From contig JALGVJ010000053.1 of the NCBI GenBank assembly GCA_029838195.1, forward strand, positions 1 to 21,077: a stretch of DNA of 21,077 bases. Reading direction: 5' to 3'. This document shows positions 2,142 to 15,249 of this stretch, one piece after another. This DNA comes from Promethearchaeota archaeon (GTDB taxonomy: Archaea; Asgardarchaeota; Lokiarchaeia; Sigyniarchaeales; SOKP01). The position numbers and the translations under genes are program-made. The notes under the pieces were generated by a model, which was not told where the DNA came from, did no database searches, and saw nothing but the letters and a program-made list of their open reading frames with translations. Position 1 is the stretch's first letter, and every line of letters begins with the position of its first letter.

Positions 2142-4595
2142 TTAATGATTGCCCATATCTTTAGCACATTTTCCAATAGCACTTACGTGATCATCTTCAT
2201 ATAACGTGATTACTTTCACTCCTTTTGCCTTGCGATGGGTAATGCGAATGGAATCTACGGGAACTCTAATGACTTGTCCTTGTTCAGTTCCGATTATTAA
2301 ATCTTTATCTTTCGCAATACGGGACGCAATGACTTCATCTCCATCATCTTCTTGTAAAGAAATATTAATCACGCCCTTCGTGGCTCTCCCCGTTTTTCGA
2401 TATTCATTCACGTGAGTTCTCTGAGCATGTCCGTTTTTTGTAATGGTTAAAATAATATCATCATCCGTTACGAGTAATAAATCAATCACCTCATCCCCTT
2501 CACGTAAATCAACTCCCTTTACGCCCATGGAATTTCTTCCCAATTCCCTTAATTCACTTTCATCAAATCGAATGGCATAGCCTAATTTCGTTGTGATGAA
2601 AATATCTTGTAATTCATTGGTTAATTTTTTCACCCGCACTAATTTATCATTGGGACGAATTTTTTGAGCTCGAAGTCCCGTTTTCTTTATTCTCGAAAAT
2701 AATTTTAATTTACATTTTTTAATGATTCCTTTTTGAGTTATCATGATGAGATGATAATCCGTATTGAAGTTATTAATGGGGATCATGTCTGAGATTTCTT
2801 CATTTTCTTGAATCTGAATTAAATTAACAATGGGTTTCCCTTTTGCGGTTCTTTTTTGTAAAGGAATTTCGTATGCTTTTATGGAATAGACGCGTCCTTT
2901 TGATGTAAAAAATAAAATTGTATCGTGTGTGGAGCAAACAAATAAATCTAAAATGAAATCTTCTTCTCCTATCTTAATCCCTTTTTTTCCCTTGCCCCCT
3001 CTTTTTTGAGCTTGATATTCATCGAGAGAGATCCGTTTAATATAGTGATTATTCGTCATTATAATCATAGTAGGTTCATTTTTTATCAAGTCTTTCTCCT
3101 TTATTGTTTTAATTTTCTCTTGCTGATGAATTATTGTTCGTCGCTCATCGCCGTATTTTTTACTCATTTCCACGAGTTCTTGTTTTATAATTTCCAGACG
3201 TTTTTTCTCTGAAGCTAAGATTTTTGATAGGTCTTTAATCGCATTAGTTAGAGATGTTTGTTCCTCAATTAATTTTTGTCGTTCAAGACTCGTTAAACGG
3301 GATAAAGGCATGGCTAAGATGGTTTTTACTTGGATCTCACTGAGACTCCACGTACTCATTAACTGGTTTTGGGCTTCTTGCTTGTCTTTTGATGCCTTTA
3401 TAATTTTAATCACTTCATCAATATTATTTAGCGCAATTAAAAGACCATCCACTTTATGTAATCTTTCTTCTGCTTTTTTCAAATCAAATTCAGTTCTCCG
3501 CTGAATGATGGTTAATCGATGATTAATGTATTCTTGTATCAGTTCTTTTAAAGTAAGTATTTTTGGGAGTTTACCATCATTCGTGAGCACCAAGTTTACC
3601 ACGTGAAATTGAGTGAGTAGTCTCGTGTGCTTGAATAGAACATTTTTAATTATTCGGGGTTGAGCCGATTTTCTAAGCTCTAATACGATTCTTATACCAG
3701 TCCGATCAGACTCATCTCGCAAGTCCTTGATATCTTTTAATTTACCATCTCGTATTAATTTCGCAATAGACTCTACTAGATCAGTTTTATTAATCAAATA
3801 AGGAATTTCCGTGATAATTAACCTTCTTTTTTCTCCTTCTTGTTCTAATTTTATTTTTCCTCTAACAGTTATTCGGCCTCTTCCTGTAGAATATGCATTA
3901 TAGATGCCGTTTGTATTTGTAATAATTCCTCCCGTTGGAAAATCAGGACCCTTAATTATTTCCATTAATTCTTCCACCGAAATATCCGGATTATCGATGG
4001 TAGAAATAATTCCTTGGCAAATTTCCATTAAATTATGAGGTGGCATGGAAGTAGCCATTCCTACAGCAATCCCTTTTGTTCCATTTATTAAGATATTGGG
4101 CAATTTCGCAGGAAAATAACGGGGTTCTTGAAGCGTTTCATCAAAATTTGGCTGAAAATCCACGGCATTTTTATCTAAATCCTCAACCAATTCATTTGCT
4201 ATTTCAGAAAGGCGTGCCTCCGTATAACGCATGGCAGCAGGCTCATCTCCGTCAATTGATCCAAAATTTCCCTGCGGATCGATTAATGGATATCTCATGG
4301 AAAAATCTTGGGCCATTCGTACTAAACTATTATAAATTGCTGCATCTCCGTGAGGATGGAATTTCCCTAATACATCGCCCACAATTCTGGCACTCTTTAC
4401 ATGAGGCCGATTAAAAAATTGATTATTTGCATACATGGAATAAATAATCCTTTTATGGACGGGTTTGAGACCATCTCTCACGTCCGGAATTGCTCTTCCG
4501 ATGACTACTGACATGGCGTAGTCAATATAACTACTTTCCATCTCATTTTTTAATGAAACTTCCTCGATTTGTTCAATTGTCATGATTACAACCAA
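2142..4595 (-). CDS. gyrA: DNA gyrase subunit A
   Basis: RAIPDVRDGLKPVH, FHPHGD, catalytic Tyr in AAMRYTE, GyrA-box QKRGGKG, and repeated beta-pinwheel blades in the C-terminal domain. True start may be the ATG at 4583 rather than the TTG at 4595. Confidence 0.97.
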   Translation of the reverse strand: MVVIMTIEQIEEVSLKNEMESSYIDYAMSVVIGRAIPDVRDGLKPVHKRIIYSMYANNQFFNRPHVKSARIVGDVLGKFHPHGDAAIYNSLVRMAQDFSMRYPLIDPQGNFGSIDGDEPAAMRYTEARLSEIANELVEDLDKNAVDFQPNFDETLQEPRYFPAKLPNILINGTKGIAVGMATSMPPHNLMEICQGIISTIDNPDISVEELMEIIKGPDFPTGGIITNTNGIYNAYSTGRGRITVRGKIKLEQEGEKRRLIITEIPYLINKTDLVESIAKLIRDGKLKDIKDLRDESDRTGIRIVLELRKSAQPRIIKNVLFKHTRLLTQFHVVNLVLTNDGKLPKILTLKELIQEYINHRLTIIQRRTEFDLKKAEERLHKVDGLLIALNNIDEVIKIIKASKDKQEAQNQLMSTWSLSEIQVKTILAMPLSRLTSLERQKLIEEQTSLTNAIKDLSKILASEKKRLEIIKQELVEMSKKYGDERRTIIHQQEKIKTIKEKDLIKNEPTMIIMTNNHYIKRISLDEYQAQKRGGKGKKGIKIGEEDFILDLFVCSTHDTILFFTSKGRVYSIKAYEIPLQKRTAKGKPIVNLIQIQENEEISDMIPINNFNTDYHLIMITQKGIIKKCKLKLFSRIKKTGLRAQKIRPNDKLVRVKKLTNELQDIFITTKLGYAIRFDESELRELGRNSMGVKGVDLREGDEVIDLLLVTDDDIILTITKNGHAQRTHVNEYRKTGRATKGVINISLQEDDGDEVIASRIAKDKDLIIGTEQGQVIRVPVDSIRITHRKAKGVKVITLYEDDHVSAIGKCAKDMGNH

Positions 4596-4614
4596 AAAAT
4601 TAGTTAAACAATTA

Positions 4615-6642
<2,028 letters not shown>

Positions 6643-7113: not shown

Positions 7114-7977
7114 TCATTTCTGCCTTCTTAATTCTTCAGCAACTTTAATGATCTCAAATAATTGTGAATTGACATCGTGAGTTCTGATGATATGAGCTCC
7201 ATTATATACAGCAATAGCTGTAGCTGAAAGCGTTCCATTTAACCGATCTCTTGGATCAGGTAATTGTAAGATTTCCCCAATAAAAGATTTTCTTGATATT
7301 GCCACCAAGATGGGTTTATGTAATCGCTTTAATCGTAGTAGCTCATTAATTATTTTTAAATCGCATGTATATATTTTTTTTTCAACCCAATGACCTATCC
7401 CGGGATCTAAAATTATTTTATTTGTATCATGTCCCTTATTTTTTAATTGTTTTAAGGTTTTTTTAAATTCAGCGATAATATCTTTCATTTTTAATAAATC
7501 ACCGGGATCTTTCTTAGAGGCCATGATAATGGCAGGAATTTCTGTTTTCAAAATGAAATTCATTAAATCCGGATCTGTTTTGAAACAACTAACATCATTT
7601 AAAATCATCTTTTTTTCATGACTTGAAACAATTTCATGAGCTTTTTGAGCAACTTCTTTATATTGCGTATCAACAGAGATTATAATATTTTTTGGAACCT
7701 GTTCACACGTGATTTCTAAAGCAGGGATGATGCGAGCAATTTCTTCTTTTACTGTTATCTTTTCCGACCATGGAGCCGTGGAACGGGCCCCAACATCTAA
7801 AATTTTAGCGCCGTTTTGTATCATGGTATTAATCGCATTTTTTAAATCTTCTGGAGTGGTAAGCACGGAATTCTTATAGAACGATTCGGGGCTCAAATTA
7901 ATAACACCCATCACTACAGTGGGAACATCATCCCCAAGTTCCAAGCAATCGAATAATTTAACGTGGATTTTATTCAT
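7114..7977 (-). CDS. folP: Dihydropteroate synthase
   Basis: MGVINLSPESF, DVGARST, ISVDT, LNDVS, ILDPGIG, SRKSFIG and IIRTHDV are the pterin-binding TIM-barrel motifs. Confidence 0.9.
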   Translation of the reverse strand: MNKIHVKLFDCLELGDDVPTVVMGVINLSPESFYKNSVLTTPEDLKNAINTMIQNGAKILDVGARSTAPWSEKITVKEEIARIIPALEITCEQVPKNIIISVDTQYKEVAQKAHEIVSSHEKKMILNDVSCFKTDPDLMNFILKTEIPAIIMASKKDPGDLLKMKDIIAEFKKTLKQLKNKGHDTNKIILDPGIGHWVEKKIYTCDLKIINELLRLKRLHKPILVAISRKSFIGEILQLPDPRDRLNGTLSATAIAVYNGAHIIRTHDVNSQLFEIIKVAEELRRQK

Positions 7978-8117
7978 TTTCTTACGATTTACACCATTTA
8001 AAATTAGTTAAAACCTCGAAGCATAAAAAAGACTTGAATGAATTTTCTCATGTTATTATTAATCATTAAAAAAGTCCTTAAAAACTTTTTTAAATTAAAA
8101 CTAAATCTAGTTAAGAA

Positions 8118-9059
8118 TCACTCATCTTTCTCTTTTATAATCATCACGATTGAAATAATTACAATTAGAATTCCTATGAAATGATATATTGTGAAAATTT
8201 CTCCTAATAAAAGCGTGGCAAAAAAAGCTGTTATGAAAGTAGAAAAAGAAATTAAGATGATAGTTTTTCCCATTTTAATGTAAGAAAGGGTCTTGCTCCA
8301 CGTTAGCAACCCAAAACCATAAACAAATCCAATTAATAAAAAATAGAGTTGATTTAAAGGATCAAGAAGAAGGGAAAGATTTTTTAAAGGATAAAAAATA
8401 AAATACGTGGAAGCTAAAATCGTCCCTCCAATAAGAGTTCTGAATAAGACGAATTGATTTGGTGTAAGCTCTTTTCTGTCGTATAATTTTTTTGAAAAAG
8501 AATGTCCTAACATATAAAGGCCAACATCGAAGATTATTATCAATACCCCTAAATTAAACTCAAGTCCATGAAAGCTCCCTTGAGTAACCGCTAAAAAAAG
8601 ACCAAAAAAAAGCACGATTGAAAAGATTACTTGGATTTTCGTGATTTTTTCTTTTAAAATCAAATATCCAAATAAAATGGAAAAAATGATTTCACTCTTT
8701 AAAGCTATAGAACCATTAATTGCCCCCGCTAATTCTAAGCCAATGAATAATAATAGGGGTACGAATGTGAAAATAAGCCCGATAAGAAATAATAGCTTTT
8801 TATTATTTTTCCACCCATTTAATAAAGATTCCGTTGTAGAATCATCTCCGGACGAATTTTTCAAAATAAATTTCAGTTTTCTACGTTCCAGCATTACAAG
8901 AGGGAGGAAAATAAAAAACTGAACTATATTCATCATGGTGGAGAAAAGATATGCATCAATTATTTTTGGTCTCGAATTAGCTACGATGGGCTGGAGCCCC
9001 ACGAGAACGATTGCTATTAATCCCCAAATTAACCCTTTTTTATGATTTTCGGATACCAA
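8118..9059 (-). CDS. DMT/EamA family transporter
   Basis: About 10 hydrophobic segments in two repeats, ending FGYLILKEKIT and FATLLLGEIFT...GILIVI. TTG start is uncertain. Confidence 0.85.
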   Translation of the reverse strand: MVSENHKKGLIWGLIAIVLVGLQPIVANSRPKIIDAYLFSTMMNIVQFFIFLPLVMLERRKLKFILKNSSGDDSTTESLLNGWKNNKKLLFLIGLIFTFVPLLLFIGLELAGAINGSIALKSEIIFSILFGYLILKEKITKIQVIFSIVLFFGLFLAVTQGSFHGLEFNLGVLIIIFDVGLYMLGHSFSKKLYDRKELTPNQFVLFRTLIGGTILASTYFIFYPLKNLSLLLDPLNQLYFLLIGFVYGFGLLTWSKTLSYIKMGKTIILISFSTFITAFFATLLLGEIFTIYHFIGILIVIISIVMIIKEKDE

Positions 9060-9123
9060 CCTACAGCAACAATAAAAAAATTCTAATTTTTTAAATATTA
9101 ATACGAATTAAAAAAATGAGGAT

Positions 9124-9990
9124 TCATTTTAATTTTTCACTTTCCTCTGCTTTGGTTCTAAAAAATTCCATTATTTCACTGAAAGTCACCTTGGCATCAT
9201 TCCCAAATATCTCTTTTCTAAAAATGAGTAAAATTGTGATTAAAATAATTGCTTTTATTAGGAGCACGTAATAAATATTGACCGGGAAATTAAACACCAA
9301 TGTGGCATTTGCCGTTCCGTGTAAGAGTAAAACCGTGAGCAAGCACCCTTTACCCTTGTTATAAATCCATGTTTGAATAATGGAAACAAGGATTACAAAC
9401 AAGAGAAAATTCCAAATAGAACCGTATAATTGAAGCATGGGGCTATCCTTAAGCAGGAAATGTGGCCAATGCCAAGCCGCCGTGATGATACTCAAGATTA
9501 GTGAAGAGTAAAAAGGAGAAAATCGCTCTTGGAGATGGGGGAGAGCAAAGGATGACCATCCGAATTCCTCTCCCATGCTAAAAATAAAATTAACAATGAC
9601 GGCAGGAATGAATTCTATCCAAAGAATGAGAGAGAGATTGTAAGGCCCCACGAATAGAAAATATAGAAACACTTGGCCAAAAAACTGAATTAATGGTAGG
9701 ACAAAAGCGAGGAGAACCCAGGGGAATGCTTTCTTAGCATTTAAATTAAATTGACCGAAATTATATTCAGGCCCATCCTTACCATAGACAATTCGTGAAC
9801 TAATGAGAGCTCCAAGCAAGGGTGAAACACCTCCTATATACACGTAGAGCGTGATGAAGGGAATAAGACCATAAGAAGATAATACCCAAGGTAGATACCC
9901 AATAGCCCCAATAAGGAAGGTAAAAAAGAGGAACCATGATAGCGGTGTAATTAAGGATTTTTTATTATTCTCTGGTGAGTTATTATTCAT
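9124..9990 (-). CDS. CPBP (Abi/type II CAAX) intramembrane glutamic protease family protein
   Basis: Multi-TM protein with GEEFGW, AAWHWP and LHGTAN motifs. Confidence 0.85.
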   Translation of the reverse strand: MNNNSPENNKKSLITPLSWFLFFTFLIGAIGYLPWVLSSYGLIPFITLYVYIGGVSPLLGALISSRIVYGKDGPEYNFGQFNLNAKKAFPWVLLAFVLPLIQFFGQVFLYFLFVGPYNLSLILWIEFIPAVIVNFIFSMGEEFGWSSFALPHLQERFSPFYSSLILSIITAAWHWPHFLLKDSPMLQLYGSIWNFLLFVILVSIIQTWIYNKGKGCLLTVLLLHGTANATLVFNFPVNIYYVLLIKAIILITILLIFRKEIFGNDAKVTFSEIMEFFRTKAEESEKLK

Positions 9991-10108
9991 TTTTTTACCA
10001 CAATATCATTGATATTAAGTGAATTGTTTACACAAATAATTTAAAAATTACTATTTAATTTTATTTTTTCCTTGAAATAAGATAGTCTTTCAATGATTTC
10101 AAGTGGAA

Positions 10109-10116
10109 TTTAATAA
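10109..10116 (+). promoter_or_regulatory. Candidate archaeal TATA box for a leaderless cofE-like transcript
   Basis: TTTAATAA lies 25-32 nt upstream of the ATG at 10141, preceded by purine-rich AAGTGGAA, with no SD before the ATG. Weak evidence in AT-rich DNA. Confidence 0.3.
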
Positions 10117-10140
10117 CCATAAAATCTTCTGTTATGTAAC

Positions 10141-10935
10141 ATGGAATTGTTTTCAATTCGATTGCCGTTCATAAAAAAAAATGCTCCACTCCTTAGAATC
10201 ATCATTAATTCCATTCAAGTTCAAGGAAAAGAGCTTAAAAATGGAGATATTATAGTTATATCGGAAAAAGTTATTGCTACTTCGCAAGGACGAATTATAA
10301 AGCTAGAAGATATAAAAGAAATATCTAAGGAAGCAAGCGAAATGGCAAGAAAATACGATATGGATGAACGATATGTGGAAATAATTTTAAGAGAAGCTTC
10401 CATGATTCTCGGAGGAATGAAGCACGTGATTTTAACGAAAGTTAATGATTTCTTGATTGCGAATAGCGGAATTGATCAATCCAATGCTGGTTTGGGGAAT
10501 GTCGTGTTATTGCCTAAAAACGTGAAAAACGTGGCTTGGGAATTCAGAAAAGTTCTTAAAGAGGAATTCAATCTCGATGAACTTGGCGTTATCATTGCCG
10601 ATTCAAGGGTTCAGCCTCTAAGAAAGGGCACTATTGGCATCGCTATCGCAACGGCTGGGTTTGAGCCCGTTGAGGATTGCAGGGGAAGGGAAGATTTATA
10701 TGGACGTCCCCTACAAATCACCTTGAGAGCAGTTGCTGATGATTTAACCAGTGCAGCACAATTTTTATTGGGGGAAGCAAATGAACAAACTCCTGTCGTC
10801 ATAATTCGAGGAGCTAACGTGAAATTCACCGAAAATCCTCAATTAACCACGGAAATGTCCCCTGAAGAATGCTTGTACATGAATATTTTTTCTCGGTATC
10901 TTTTAATGATAGATTCGAAGGAGGATAATTCTTAA
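10141..10935 (+). CDS. cofE: CofE-family gamma-glutamyl ligase (F420-0:L-glutamate ligase or FolC2-like folylglutamate ligase)
   Basis: GDIIVISEKVIATSQGR, ANSGIDQSN, GVIIADS, DLYGRPLQIT, AVADDL and GEANEQTPVVIIRG are CofE-family motifs. Substrate is uncertain. Confidence 0.85.
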   Translation: MELFSIRLPFIKKNAPLLRIIINSIQVQGKELKNGDIIVISEKVIATSQGRIIKLEDIKEISKEASEMARKYDMDERYVEIILREASMILGGMKHVILTKVNDFLIANSGIDQSNAGLGNVVLLPKNVKNVAWEFRKVLKEEFNLDELGVIIADSRVQPLRKGTIGIAIATAGFEPVEDCRGREDLYGRPLQITLRAVADDLTSAAQFLLGEANEQTPVVIIRGANVKFTENPQLTTEMSPEECLYMNIFSRYLLMIDSKEDNS

Positions 10936-11946: not shown

Positions 11947-13413
11947 ATGAAATATCATGAATATATGGCCCATGAATTACTTGAACAAATAAAAAATAAA
12001 GAAATAAAAGTACAAGACGTTATTCAGGAAATTTTTGAAAGAATTAAAGAGGTAGAAAAAAAACTCCATTCTTTCGTGAATTTGGCTGAAAATGAAGCCT
12101 TGTTGAAGGCGAAAAAAATAGATGAGCAAATCAAAAGAGGTAAGAAAGGAGGCCGGTTATTAGGTCTTCCTTTAGCCAATAAGGATCTCATTTGCATAAA
12201 AAACTTTCCCACGACGTGTTGTTCTAAGATCTTACAAAATTTTCATCCTCCCTATAACGCAACTGTAGTAGAAAAATTAATTCATGAGGGAGGGGCCATT
12301 CACATTGGAAATACAAATATGGATGAGTTTGCGATGGGTAGTTCGACCGAAAATAGTTGCTATGGTTCTACACATAACCCTTGGGCTTTGGATAGGGTGC
12401 CGGGAGGGTCTAGTGGAGGCTCTGGTTCAAGCGTGGCAGCTGGTCAAGCCATCGCAGCATTAGGAAGTGATACGGGGGGAAGTATCCGCTGTCCAGCATC
12501 ATATTGTGGGATCGTTGGCCTTAAACCTACGTATGGAAGGGTTTCCCGGTATGGATTGGTTGCATTCGCTAATTCCTTAGATCAAATCGGGCCTTTAACT
12601 AAGTGTGTACATGACGCAGCCCTTCTTTTAGAAGTCATGGCTGGTAAAGATCCCTTGGATTCTACATCGGTCGATATTCCTGTAAATTCTTACACTGCCT
12701 CATTAAACGTCCCCCTAAAAAATAAAGTCATTGGTGTGCCGAAAGAATATTTTGGAGATGGAATAGAGAAGGATGTTAAAAATGCTGTTGAGAAATCTAT
12801 AGAAATTTTAAAAGAATTAGGAGCTAAAACCATGGATATTAGCTTACATCATCTTGAATACACGGTTCCCACCTATTTTTTATTGTGCATGAGCGAAGCT
12901 AGCTCTAATTTAGCTAGATATGATGGATTGCGTTATGGAAAGATGACAGATAATCTCGAAGGTGATGTCTTTCAAGTATATAGTAGAACTCGAGGAGAAA
13001 AATTTGGTCCCGAAGTAAGGAGAAGGATTATCTTAGGTACCCATGCCTTATCTGCCGGCTATTATGACATGTTTTATATTAAGGCGTTGAAAGTGCGTAC
13101 TCTCATTAAAAAGGATTTCCTGGATGCCTTTAAAAAGTGTGATGTACTCGTAGGTCCTACCATGCCAACTACGGCCTTCAAAATCGGTGAATTAATCAAT
13201 GATCCCTTATCGATGTACATGATGGACGCTCTCACGTGTCCTGTCAATTTAGCAGGCCTTCCTGCCATTTCAATTCCTTGCGGGCATGATAAAAATCACT
13301 TGCCGATAGGATTTCAAGTAATTGGAAGATATTTTGATGAAAAAACAATATTAAATGTGGCTTATCATCTCGAACAAGAATTAAATATTTATCGAACCAT
13401 GCCACCAATTTAA
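11947..13413 (+). CDS. gatA: Asp-tRNA(Asn)/Glu-tRNA(Gln) amidotransferase subunit A
   Basis: Amidase signature KD, TNMDEFAMGSS, GGSSGGS, GSDTGGSIRCPA, plus GatA-specific SNLARYDG and EVRRRIILGT. Confidence 0.97.
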   Translation: MKYHEYMAHELLEQIKNKEIKVQDVIQEIFERIKEVEKKLHSFVNLAENEALLKAKKIDEQIKRGKKGGRLLGLPLANKDLICIKNFPTTCCSKILQNFHPPYNATVVEKLIHEGGAIHIGNTNMDEFAMGSSTENSCYGSTHNPWALDRVPGGSSGGSGSSVAAGQAIAALGSDTGGSIRCPASYCGIVGLKPTYGRVSRYGLVAFANSLDQIGPLTKCVHDAALLLEVMAGKDPLDSTSVDIPVNSYTASLNVPLKNKVIGVPKEYFGDGIEKDVKNAVEKSIEILKELGAKTMDISLHHLEYTVPTYFLLCMSEASSNLARYDGLRYGKMTDNLEGDVFQVYSRTRGEKFGPEVRRRIILGTHALSAGYYDMFYIKALKVRTLIKKDFLDAFKKCDVLVGPTMPTTAFKIGELINDPLSMYMMDALTCPVNLAGLPAISIPCGHDKNHLPIGFQVIGRYFDEKTILNVAYHLEQELNIYRTMPPI

Positions 13414-13415
13414 AA

Positions 13416-13421
13416 GAGGAG
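13416..13421 (+). promoter_or_regulatory. Shine-Dalgarno-like site for gatB
   Basis: GAGGAG 8 nt before the gatB ATG, in the 16-nt gatA-gatB spacer. Confidence 0.55.
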
Positions 13422-13429
13422 TAAAGAGA

Positions 13430-14887
13430 ATGAATTCAGAAAATGATGTGATCATTGGTTTAGAAGTACATGTTCAATTAAATAATTTGAAAACTAAATT
13501 ATTTTGTAGCTGTAGTACCGATTATAGAGGAAAAGAACCGAATACGCATGTTTGCCCGATATGTCTTGGCTTGCCGGGATCCTTACCCGTTATCAATGAA
13601 AAAGCAATTGAATTTGCCACCAAGGTCGCACTTGCGCTCCAATGTGAAATAAATGAACGGTTCTGGTTTTTCAGGAAAAATTATTTTTATCCCGATATGG
13701 CAAAAAATTTTCAAATCTCCCAATATAATAAAGCGGGGGGCAGGGCTTTTGGAAATAAGGGCCATATTACGATAAAAATAAATGGAGTAAAAAAAGATAT
13801 TCTCTTGAATAGGATTCATTTAGAAGAAGATCCGGCAAGGATCGTTCATTTTGGAAGCATTATTACCTCTCCCTACACGCTGGTAGATTATAATCGTTCG
13901 GGAATTACCTTGCTTGAAATTGTGACGGAACCTCTCATTAATTCTCCAGAAGAAGCACGAGAATTTTTGAACCAATTAAAATTATTAATTGAATATACCG
14001 GCGTGTCTAATCTTGACTTAGAAGGTTCTTGTCGTGTCGATGCTAATATTTCCATTAAGGGATATCCTCGCGTTGAGGTAAAAAACATTAATAGCTTTAA
14101 AGAAGTAGAGAGCGCTTTAAAATGGGAAATTACTCGCCAAAAAAATTTGATCAAGAGAAATCAATCCTTCACGCAAGAAACGCGCCACTGGGATGGAAAA
14201 GTAACCATTCCCTTGAGAACAAAGGAATTTGAAAAAGATTATCGGTATTTTCCCGAACAAGATCTTGTTCCTATTGAATTGACGCAGGAATATATTGAGA
14301 AAATACGGAAAACCTTACCTGAAATGCCTAATGAACGCTTCGAACGCTTGCGAAAACAATATCAACTTTCTGAATTTGATGCTGAAAATTTGATCTTGAA
14401 CAAATCACTTGCTGATTTCTATGAAGAAGGCGTGAATTTAGACCCTTCTTTTGGTCCCGAAGAATATAAACTCTATTGTAATTGGTTAATGAATGACGTG
14501 TTAGGATGGCTCAATGATCATAAATTAACTATTGACCAAACCCGATTAAAACCGCATCACCTCGTAGATCTCATTAAATATCTTCAATCCGGAAAAATTA
14601 CCTCAAAAATCGCAAAAACATTAACGGATGAGATAATGAAAGGCATTCCTTTAGAAAAAATCCTTAAAAAACACGGGAAAGTGAGAATTGATGATGAAAC
14701 TTACATTCGAAAAATCGTTCGAGAAGTGATTAATGAGAATCCAAAGATTGTCGAAGATTATTTTAAAAAACCAAAAGCCATGCAAGCTCTCATTGGAAAT
14801 GTCATGAAAAAAACAAGAGGCCAAGCAGATCCTAAATTAACTCAAACCATCATGCAAGAAGAACTAAAAAAATTAGAAAGAAATTAA
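13430..14887 (+). CDS. gatB: Asp-tRNA(Asn)/Glu-tRNA(Gln) amidotransferase subunit B
   Basis: IGLEVHVQL, KLFCSC, CPICLGLPGSLP, RKNYFYPD, IHLEED, EVKNINSF, DYRYFPE, and a C-terminal YqeY-like domain (GNVMKKTRGQADP). Confidence 0.97.
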   Translation: MNSENDVIIGLEVHVQLNNLKTKLFCSCSTDYRGKEPNTHVCPICLGLPGSLPVINEKAIEFATKVALALQCEINERFWFFRKNYFYPDMAKNFQISQYNKAGGRAFGNKGHITIKINGVKKDILLNRIHLEEDPARIVHFGSIITSPYTLVDYNRSGITLLEIVTEPLINSPEEAREFLNQLKLLIEYTGVSNLDLEGSCRVDANISIKGYPRVEVKNINSFKEVESALKWEITRQKNLIKRNQSFTQETRHWDGKVTIPLRTKEFEKDYRYFPEQDLVPIELTQEYIEKIRKTLPEMPNERFERLRKQYQLSEFDAENLILNKSLADFYEEGVNLDPSFGPEEYKLYCNWLMNDVLGWLNDHKLTIDQTRLKPHHLVDLIKYLQSGKITSKIAKTLTDEIMKGIPLEKILKKHGKVRIDDETYIRKIVREVINENPKIVEDYFKKPKAMQALIGNVMKKTRGQADPKLTQTIMQEELKKLERN

Positions 14888-14897
14888 TTTTTTTTTT
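14888..14897 (+). terminator. Oligo-T archaeal-type terminator candidate for gatAB
   Basis: A run of 10 T directly follows the gatB stop and fills the 8-bp gap to the convergent Roadblock gene. Confidence 0.5.
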
Positions 14898-15249
14898 AAA
14901 GGACTTGTTCTAATGCGTTTTTAGCTGCACTTAATTTTAAATTCACGATACCCAGTTTTACTTCCAGAGAGGCTAGAACGCATAAAATGTTTCCTTTTAC
15001 TTCCGTGAATAAAATTTTTCCCTTTTGAGATTCTAAAATTGCATTATTAAACGCACCTTGTTCCAATTCTTTCGTAGCTCGCTGCGAAGCTTTTAATACT
15101 AAAGTGACCATCGCCGCCACGGCTTCAGGATTAACCCAGCCAGGTAAGGACGCGCCTTTAATGAGACCAAACTTCTCTATTAGTGCCGCTCCATAGACAC
15201 CCTTAATCGCTTTTAGAGAATCCAAAATTTCTGTTATCTTTTCACTCAT
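14896..15249 (-). CDS. Roadblock/LC7 (MglB/LAMTOR2-like) domain protein
   Basis: 117 aa: N-terminal helix, GVYGAALIEKFGLI, AVAAM helix, ELEQG, strands, and VKLGIV before a C-terminal helix. This is the typical Roadblock pattern. Confidence 0.88.
   Translation of the reverse strand: MSEKITEILDSLKAIKGVYGAALIEKFGLIKGASLPGWVNPEAVAAMVTLVLKASQRATKELEQGAFNNAILESQKGKILFTEVKGNILCVLASLEVKLGIVNLKLSAAKNALEQVL

Follow-up and report, generated by a model that had tools for sequence, protein, structure and literature searches.

A CofE-family ligase paired with folP as a probable FolC2-like replacement for FolC in Asgard archaea

FolC2 of Chlamydia trachomatis (CT611) is a CofE-family protein whose gene clusters with folP where a genome has no folC (PMC1971073, PMC4161248), and it complements E. 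coli folC (PMC1971073). The acyl-phosphate chemistry of CofE, the F420 ligase, has also been described (PMC10861534). Our literature search, which covered few subscription papers, found FolC2 described for chlamydiae only and nothing on an Asgard or other archaeal clade. Folate-dependent carbon metabolism is credited to Asgard archaea, and here we analysed a 21,077-nucleotide stretch (the window; positions 1 to 21,077 of contig JALGVJ010000053.1, assembly GCA_029838195.1) from a Promethearchaeota archaeon, in which a CofE-family ligase gene lies near folP, the gene for dihydropteroate synthase (DHPS). This association is real, well supported and directly testable. We consider it probable that the ligase is a FolC2-like dihydrofolate/folylpolyglutamate synthase replacing FolC, and its database name, F420-0 ligase, is probably wrong, since a diverged CofE copy beside folP most likely does the job of FolC. 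The surprise is limited, as replacement of FolC by a CofE homologue has been known since 2007.

The ligase gene (10,141–10,935, plus strand) encodes 264 amino acids, belongs to COG1478 and matches PF01996 with 216 bits (E 4.7e-64), while folP (7,114–7,977, minus strand) encodes 287 amino acids, matches PF00809 and scores 204 bits on TIGR01496 against a cut-off of 162.6. Their start codons are divergent and 2163 bp apart. An earlier note on this DNA had placed the two genes about 2.2 kb apart with only an EamA transporter (8,118–9,059, minus strand; PF00892) and a CPBP/Rce1-like protease (9,124–9,990, minus strand; PF02517) between them, and all four open reading frames (ORFs) were located as described; neither a further cof gene nor folC was present among the 18 main ORFs of the window that were scanned, as the note had also said. 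The translation contains both ligase motifs that it had named, GEANEQTP (10,771–10,794, plus strand; residues 211–218, with E212 aligned to E208 of Archaeoglobus fulgidus (Af) CofE) and EECLY (residues 242–246, within the C-terminal MSPEECLY at 10,855–10,878, plus strand), alongside DSRVQPLRKG (10,600–10,629, plus strand; residues 154–163), in which D154 and S155 are retained.

Relatives at 60–77% identity are mostly labelled Promethearchaeota, which makes the source a Lokiarchaeon. Of 80 related loci, 75 carry folP within 6 kb of the ligase, divergent every time, with a gap that is mostly below 250 bp and clusters near 56 bp; four of the other five loci have less than 1 kb of upstream DNA. 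The linkage in these loci is not chance. None of the 80 loci contains EamA or CPBP. One relative, its ligase 93% identical, shows the order folP-CPBP-ligase and lacks EamA, and CPBP was seen only in this very close relative. The true unit therefore consists of folP and the ligase head-to-head; EamA, which has two further paralogues elsewhere in the source genome, and CPBP are both recent local insertions between them and stand outside the module. The same two observations on EamA leave unsupported the suggestion in the earlier note that it moves a precursor, and we rejected it as a precursor transporter.

In the source genome (4.5 Mb, 96.6% complete, 7.9% contaminated) no folC was found by profile hidden Markov model, by tblastn with E. 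coli FolC (best E 2.9) or by P-loop motif. There are two PF01996 genes. Contig C38 carries the second, which lies directly upstream of cofD and encodes a fusion of CofE with a nitroreductase; this fusion scores over the cut-offs of PRK13294, PRK13293 and TIGR01916 and has DSFGRPFRNG, the canonical motif. With this fusion in place, and with cofC-like, cofG and cofH genes also present, F420 glutamylation is already covered; the genome thus has the composition that the earlier note had proposed to look for, a canonical cofE near cofD on another contig and no folC. This canonical CofE (L006:8088-9536), beside cofD, is FbiB-like in its fusion to a nitroreductase domain, and ORFs of about 470–480 amino acids recur across the family. 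Genes for pterin supply (mptA, mptD, mptE) and for folate use (folD, gcvT, SHMT, metF, purN, together with purH-like motifs) are present in the source genome.

The pattern extends across a sample of 151 related, partly incomplete Asgard genomes. folC was found above cut-off in none of the 151, folP in 131, and most of them have two PF01996 genes. Weak folC matches in eight genomes were rejected, being short P-loop matches in ORFs of about 880–950 amino acids and far below cut-off. A profile of the window ligase's orthologues, at a threshold strict enough to undercount distant families, identified 112 genomes; folP is no more than 6 kb from the ligase in 69 of these and no more than 0.6 kb in 58, so that the co-occurrence with folP which the earlier note had wished to see checked holds phylum-wide. 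The linked pairs belong to ten families and three gene orders: divergent in f1, f18 and f20, folP then ligase in f2, f3, f12 and f15, and ligase then folP in f4, f5 and f21. Adjacency kept through such rearrangement points to function rather than inherited synteny. More generally, orthologues of the window ligase are clustered with folate genes in genomes that have folP and lack folC; in f3 the ligase overlaps mptE. Even at a distance from folP its neighbours are frequently folate genes, gcvT/gcvH among them, and in two complete f13 genomes without folP it is head-to-head with gcvT, as would fit an enzyme that lengthens the tail of salvaged folate.

Searched with a profile, a set of 1.8 billion representatives yielded proteins of the same motif type whose names assign them to Bathyarchaeia, Hadarchaea, Geothermarchaeota, Thermoplasmata and candidate phyla radiation (CPR) bacteria. 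One of the homologues, P0155, is a 555-residue ligase-DHPS fusion, known from a single metagenomic contig, in which each half scores over its cut-off. Among metagenomic homologues, one lies beside 5-formyltetrahydrofolate cycloligase, one in an SHMT-ligase-folP run opposite gcvT and one 3 kb from folD, and one overlaps a PurN-type formyltransferase; the contexts of several others are uninformative. The phylum-wide linkage, the DHPS fusion and the co-occurrence together support the proposal in the earlier note that the ligase glutamylates dihydropteroate or folate rather than F420. Single fusions of the ligase to cytidine deaminase, PcfJ-like and PemK-like domains (P0130, P0180 and P0185) were also recorded, possibly read-through artefacts. 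The only longer fused forms that a search brought up were canonical fusions, and collections of plasmids, phages and viruses yielded canonical CofE or nothing. Methanosarcina acetivorans, used as a control, has DHPS, FolD and PF01996 matches and no FolC match, making this cultured organism a candidate for a replacement of the same kind.

The protein itself belongs to the COG1478/PF01996 superfamily by profile match, CofE fold and conserved acidic active-site residues. Its AlphaFold2 model (predicted local distance difference test score 96) matches only A. fulgidus CofE (7ULD), with a template modelling score of 0.84, and the fold is thus that of CofE (AF2256; PDB 2PHN/7ULD; TIGR01916) and FbiB's N-terminal domain. 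Aligned to 2G9I, the ligase retains the residues corresponding to Af D109, N112, D150, T151 and E208, which reportedly have a metal and guanosine triphosphate (GTP) role in CofE (Nocek 2007). In A. fulgidus CofE, G153-C155 and R234 face the F420 ring, R234 by ring stacking (PMC10861534). The window ligase has V157-Q158-P159 in place of Af G153-R154-C155 and M239 in place of R234, and so lacks the ring contacts expected of a canonical CofE; C244 replaces an Asp, and there is no longer a Lys/Arg at the position of Af K45. We counted these columns in 36 canonical CofE rows, in the Asgard paralogues and in the seven proteins that come closest to the FolC2 model. Canonical CofE has Gly in 94%, Arg in 100% and the C-terminal Arg in 81%, where the Asgard paralogues have T/V and Q and the seven FolC2-like proteins T/L, T/S and I. 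Position 156 has become basic in both of the latter groups, and both have lost the canonical Lys/Arg at position 47; a third F420 contact, F92, does not discriminate between groups. On these alignments the ring contacts are lost in the same manner as in FolC2-like proteins, which supports a folate substrate.

In a maximum-likelihood tree of 63 rows, which is unrooted, includes the C38 copy and lacks CT611, canonical CofE including C38 forms one side of a branch supported at 100/100, and the other is formed by the window ligase, the FolC2-like proteins and every Asgard paralogue. The tree check proposed earlier therefore places the ligase outside the canonical clade. Support for the split is 99 without the motif columns and the same for groups defined by gene context. 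An approximately unbiased test did not reject a Loki clade held with canonical CofE (p 0.91), a constraint that only makes the two sisters; the test was uninformative and showed the quick search to be under-optimised, and conclusions on position rest on the careful tree. The FolC2 proxies, which score 266–306 bits on TIGR04132 and some of which are named dihydrofolate/folylpolyglutamate synthase by JGI, fall together with the window ligase at the main split and are not its sister, CT611 being absent from the comparison. The window ligase departs from canonical CofE in ring contacts, tree grouping and cofD linkage, despite its TIGR01916 score.

The likeness to FolC2 lies in being a CofE-family protein clustered with folP in a genome without folC. 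The proteins nearest TIGR04132, which carry DSKTTPLRWG and GEGAEQTP, have in common with the window ligase the patterns DS[RK]xxP[LM]RxG and GExxEQTP; in both, the Gly-Arg and the C-terminal Arg of canonical CofE are gone. In contrast to FolC2 the window ligase is archaeal and shares its genome with an F420 pathway and a canonical CofE; it is about 15–20 residues longer than the FolC2-like proteins and has ECLY in its C-terminal part where they have DDIY. FolC/FPGS (Mur-ligase fold, TIGR01499) is non-homologous to it, although the acyl-phosphate activation of pteroate or folate and the addition of L-glutamate to it that are proposed here would be the same.

In the scheme we propose, FolP would condense dihydropterin pyrophosphate, made via MptA, MptD and MptE encoded elsewhere, with para-aminobenzoate (pABA) to give dihydropteroate. 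With a nucleoside triphosphate and two divalent metals, a CofE-fold dimer would then turn the benzoyl carboxylate of (dihydro- or tetrahydro-)pteroate into an activated acyl phosphate, attach L-glutamate and probably extend the gamma-glutamyl tail, and the resulting folate would supply FolD, PurN, PurH, GcvT, SHMT and MetF. We infer the substrate from gene context and the CT611 precedent and the chemistry from CofE homology; the redox state of the pteroate and the length of the tail are put forward on the same footing. The nucleotide may be GTP as in CofE, but the window ligase no longer has the basic residue seen at Af K45.

Several observations weigh against a FolC2-like assignment. The ligase scores 191.9 on TIGR01916 (cofE), above the cut-off of 180.65, although its score of 191 on PRK13293 is below the threshold of 274; on TIGR04132 (FolC2) it reaches 132 against a cut-off of 350, far short, and for this reason we do not file it as a FolC2 member. 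The Asgard paralogues and FolC2-like CPR proteins do not form one clade and the backbone is unresolved; with the tree unrooted, and CT611 absent from it, neither orthology of the Asgard proteins with CT611 nor which function came first is shown. Five Asgard genomes have the ligase and no folP match. Since the genomes are kin the counts are not independent, and the independent part consists of the fusion and of the occurrence of three gene orders, the pattern being the evidence. The pABA-side loops of FolP are non-standard, in a genome that makes ribofuranosylaminobenzene 5'-phosphate (RFA-P). Finally, DHFR, Fhs and a chorismate-binding (PabB/TrpE-type) enzyme were not found in the source genome, so that the source of pABA and the folate reductase remain holes despite folP and folD, and the earlier note's phrase that the ligase completes a one-carbon carrier pathway was overstated. 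A flavoprotein at C72:99551-99961 gave a partial match to the MJ0208/DmrX model, below cut-off, and neither thyA nor thyX was found in the source genome by a simple motif scan, an unreliable method.

The TIGR01916 score, the database name and the genome's capacity to make F420 (cofC, cofD, cofG, cofH) could instead mark the protein as an additional F420 ligase, perhaps one that extends the F420 tail, standing near folP by inherited synteny. We regard this as very improbable, given the lost ring contacts and a linkage to folP that appears in three gene orders and one fusion. The distribution also argues against it: the neighbour of cofD is the C38 paralogue, and the window ligase's orthologues persist in lineages without cofD, as in f2, where no cofD was found and the sole PF01996 gene is this ligase type next to folP, and in f20, where cofD was likewise not found and the pair is retained. 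Conversely, f9 and f16 have cofD and lack folP, and this paralogue was not found there; nor was the ligase type seen beside cof genes in any locus examined. It is equally improbable that the protein is an amide ligase for some unrelated substrate whose link to folate is historical. Uninformative neighbours and odd fusions among some homologues would fit, but folate neighbours recur in distant lineages and the missing FolC would stay unexplained in 131 folP-positive genomes.

A more substantial rival, though still an unlikely one, is that the joint product of FolP and the ligase is a modified pterin one-carbon carrier, FolP using RFA-P or another arylamine and the ligase glutamylating a methanopterin-like phospho-hydroxyglutarate end, which chemically resembles the phospholactate of F420-0. 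The source genome does hold RFAP synthase and mptD. Alignment to solved DHPS structures shows the pterin-site residues of FolP retained (N, D, ND, DPG, SRKS, RxHD) and its pABA-side loops altered (STAPW, DPGIGHW), motifs that are conserved in relatives; the altered loops suit another arylamine, the retained SRKS argues against one. The methanopterin branch of the genome moreover appears to have its own enzymes on contig C92, where a second, MJ0107-type DHPS-like ORF lies near mptA, mptD and RFAP synthase, besides a RimK/MptN-like ORF, identities that we read from sequence. The pterin/F420 gene cluster (C92:70091-96340; L007, L144, L180) comprises mptA, a RibD-reductase-like ORF, cofG, cofH, the MJ0107-like DHPS, mptD and RFAP synthase, and the RimK-like ATP-grasp ORF is at C92:36790-37674. 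In f7, probably Thorarchaeia, the ligase lies in a metF-mtrH cluster, and its place behind mtrH/mtrA-like genes and DUF2114 could be taken to favour the modified pterin; metF, like the 5-formyltetrahydrofolate cycloligase seen elsewhere, is a folate-type neighbour. At loci L128 and L135 of this family the ligase ends a metF-mtrH-mtrA-mtrH-DUF2114 cluster, in genomes mostly without RFAP synthase, which suggests that the Mtr-like proteins of f7 use folate. The pair is also retained without an RFAP synthase match in five families (f3, f5, f15, f20 and f21), which argues against a methanopterin substrate.

FolP of several Asgard families carries a C-terminal extension of about 135–140 residues with the motif KQE(M/L)L..GGD.AI and no Pfam match (L126:6956-8191, L127:7107-8315, L161:7861-9141); this is an atlas lead with a score of only 0.85, and the extension was not found in the source genome. 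We take it to resemble the N-terminal dihydropteroate-reductase region of Helicobacter FolP. In the window the folP/ligase pair is flanked by gyrB-gyrA (2,142–6,594) and gatA-gatB (11,947–14,887), an order mostly kept in relatives (gyrB in 63, gyrA in 56 and gatA in 50 of 80 loci); gatC was not identified among window ORFs of at least 80 amino acids. An IFT52 GIFT-domain protein (816–1,781) and a Roadblock/LC7 protein (14,896–15,249) are of kinds commonly listed among the eukaryote-like genes of Asgard archaea. A sigma-70 promoter scan gave results below chance, the sigma-70 model not being apt for archaea.

The folate-type CofE paralogue may even be ancient and widespread (nearly all Asgard, Bathyarchaeia, Hadarchaea, Geothermarchaeota, Thermoplasmata and CPR), defining a FolC-free archaeal folate route that in some lineages is coupled to a FolP with an extra domain, maybe a pteroate reductase. 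The F420-specific CofE would then be one specialised branch, and the folate glutamylation of eukaryotes would not have been inherited from an Asgard ancestor; we offer this wider picture as a tentative one. The window ligase is a specific and cheaply testable candidate for the FolC hole in Asgard archaea, and natural paralogue pairs within one genome could be used to trace how a single fold, that of CofE, comes to serve either F420 or pteroate. If the folate role is true, a systematic annotation error would be corrected, as such proteins score above the cofE cut-off and may lead to too many predictions of F420, and FolC2, so far shown in Chlamydia only, would extend to archaea.

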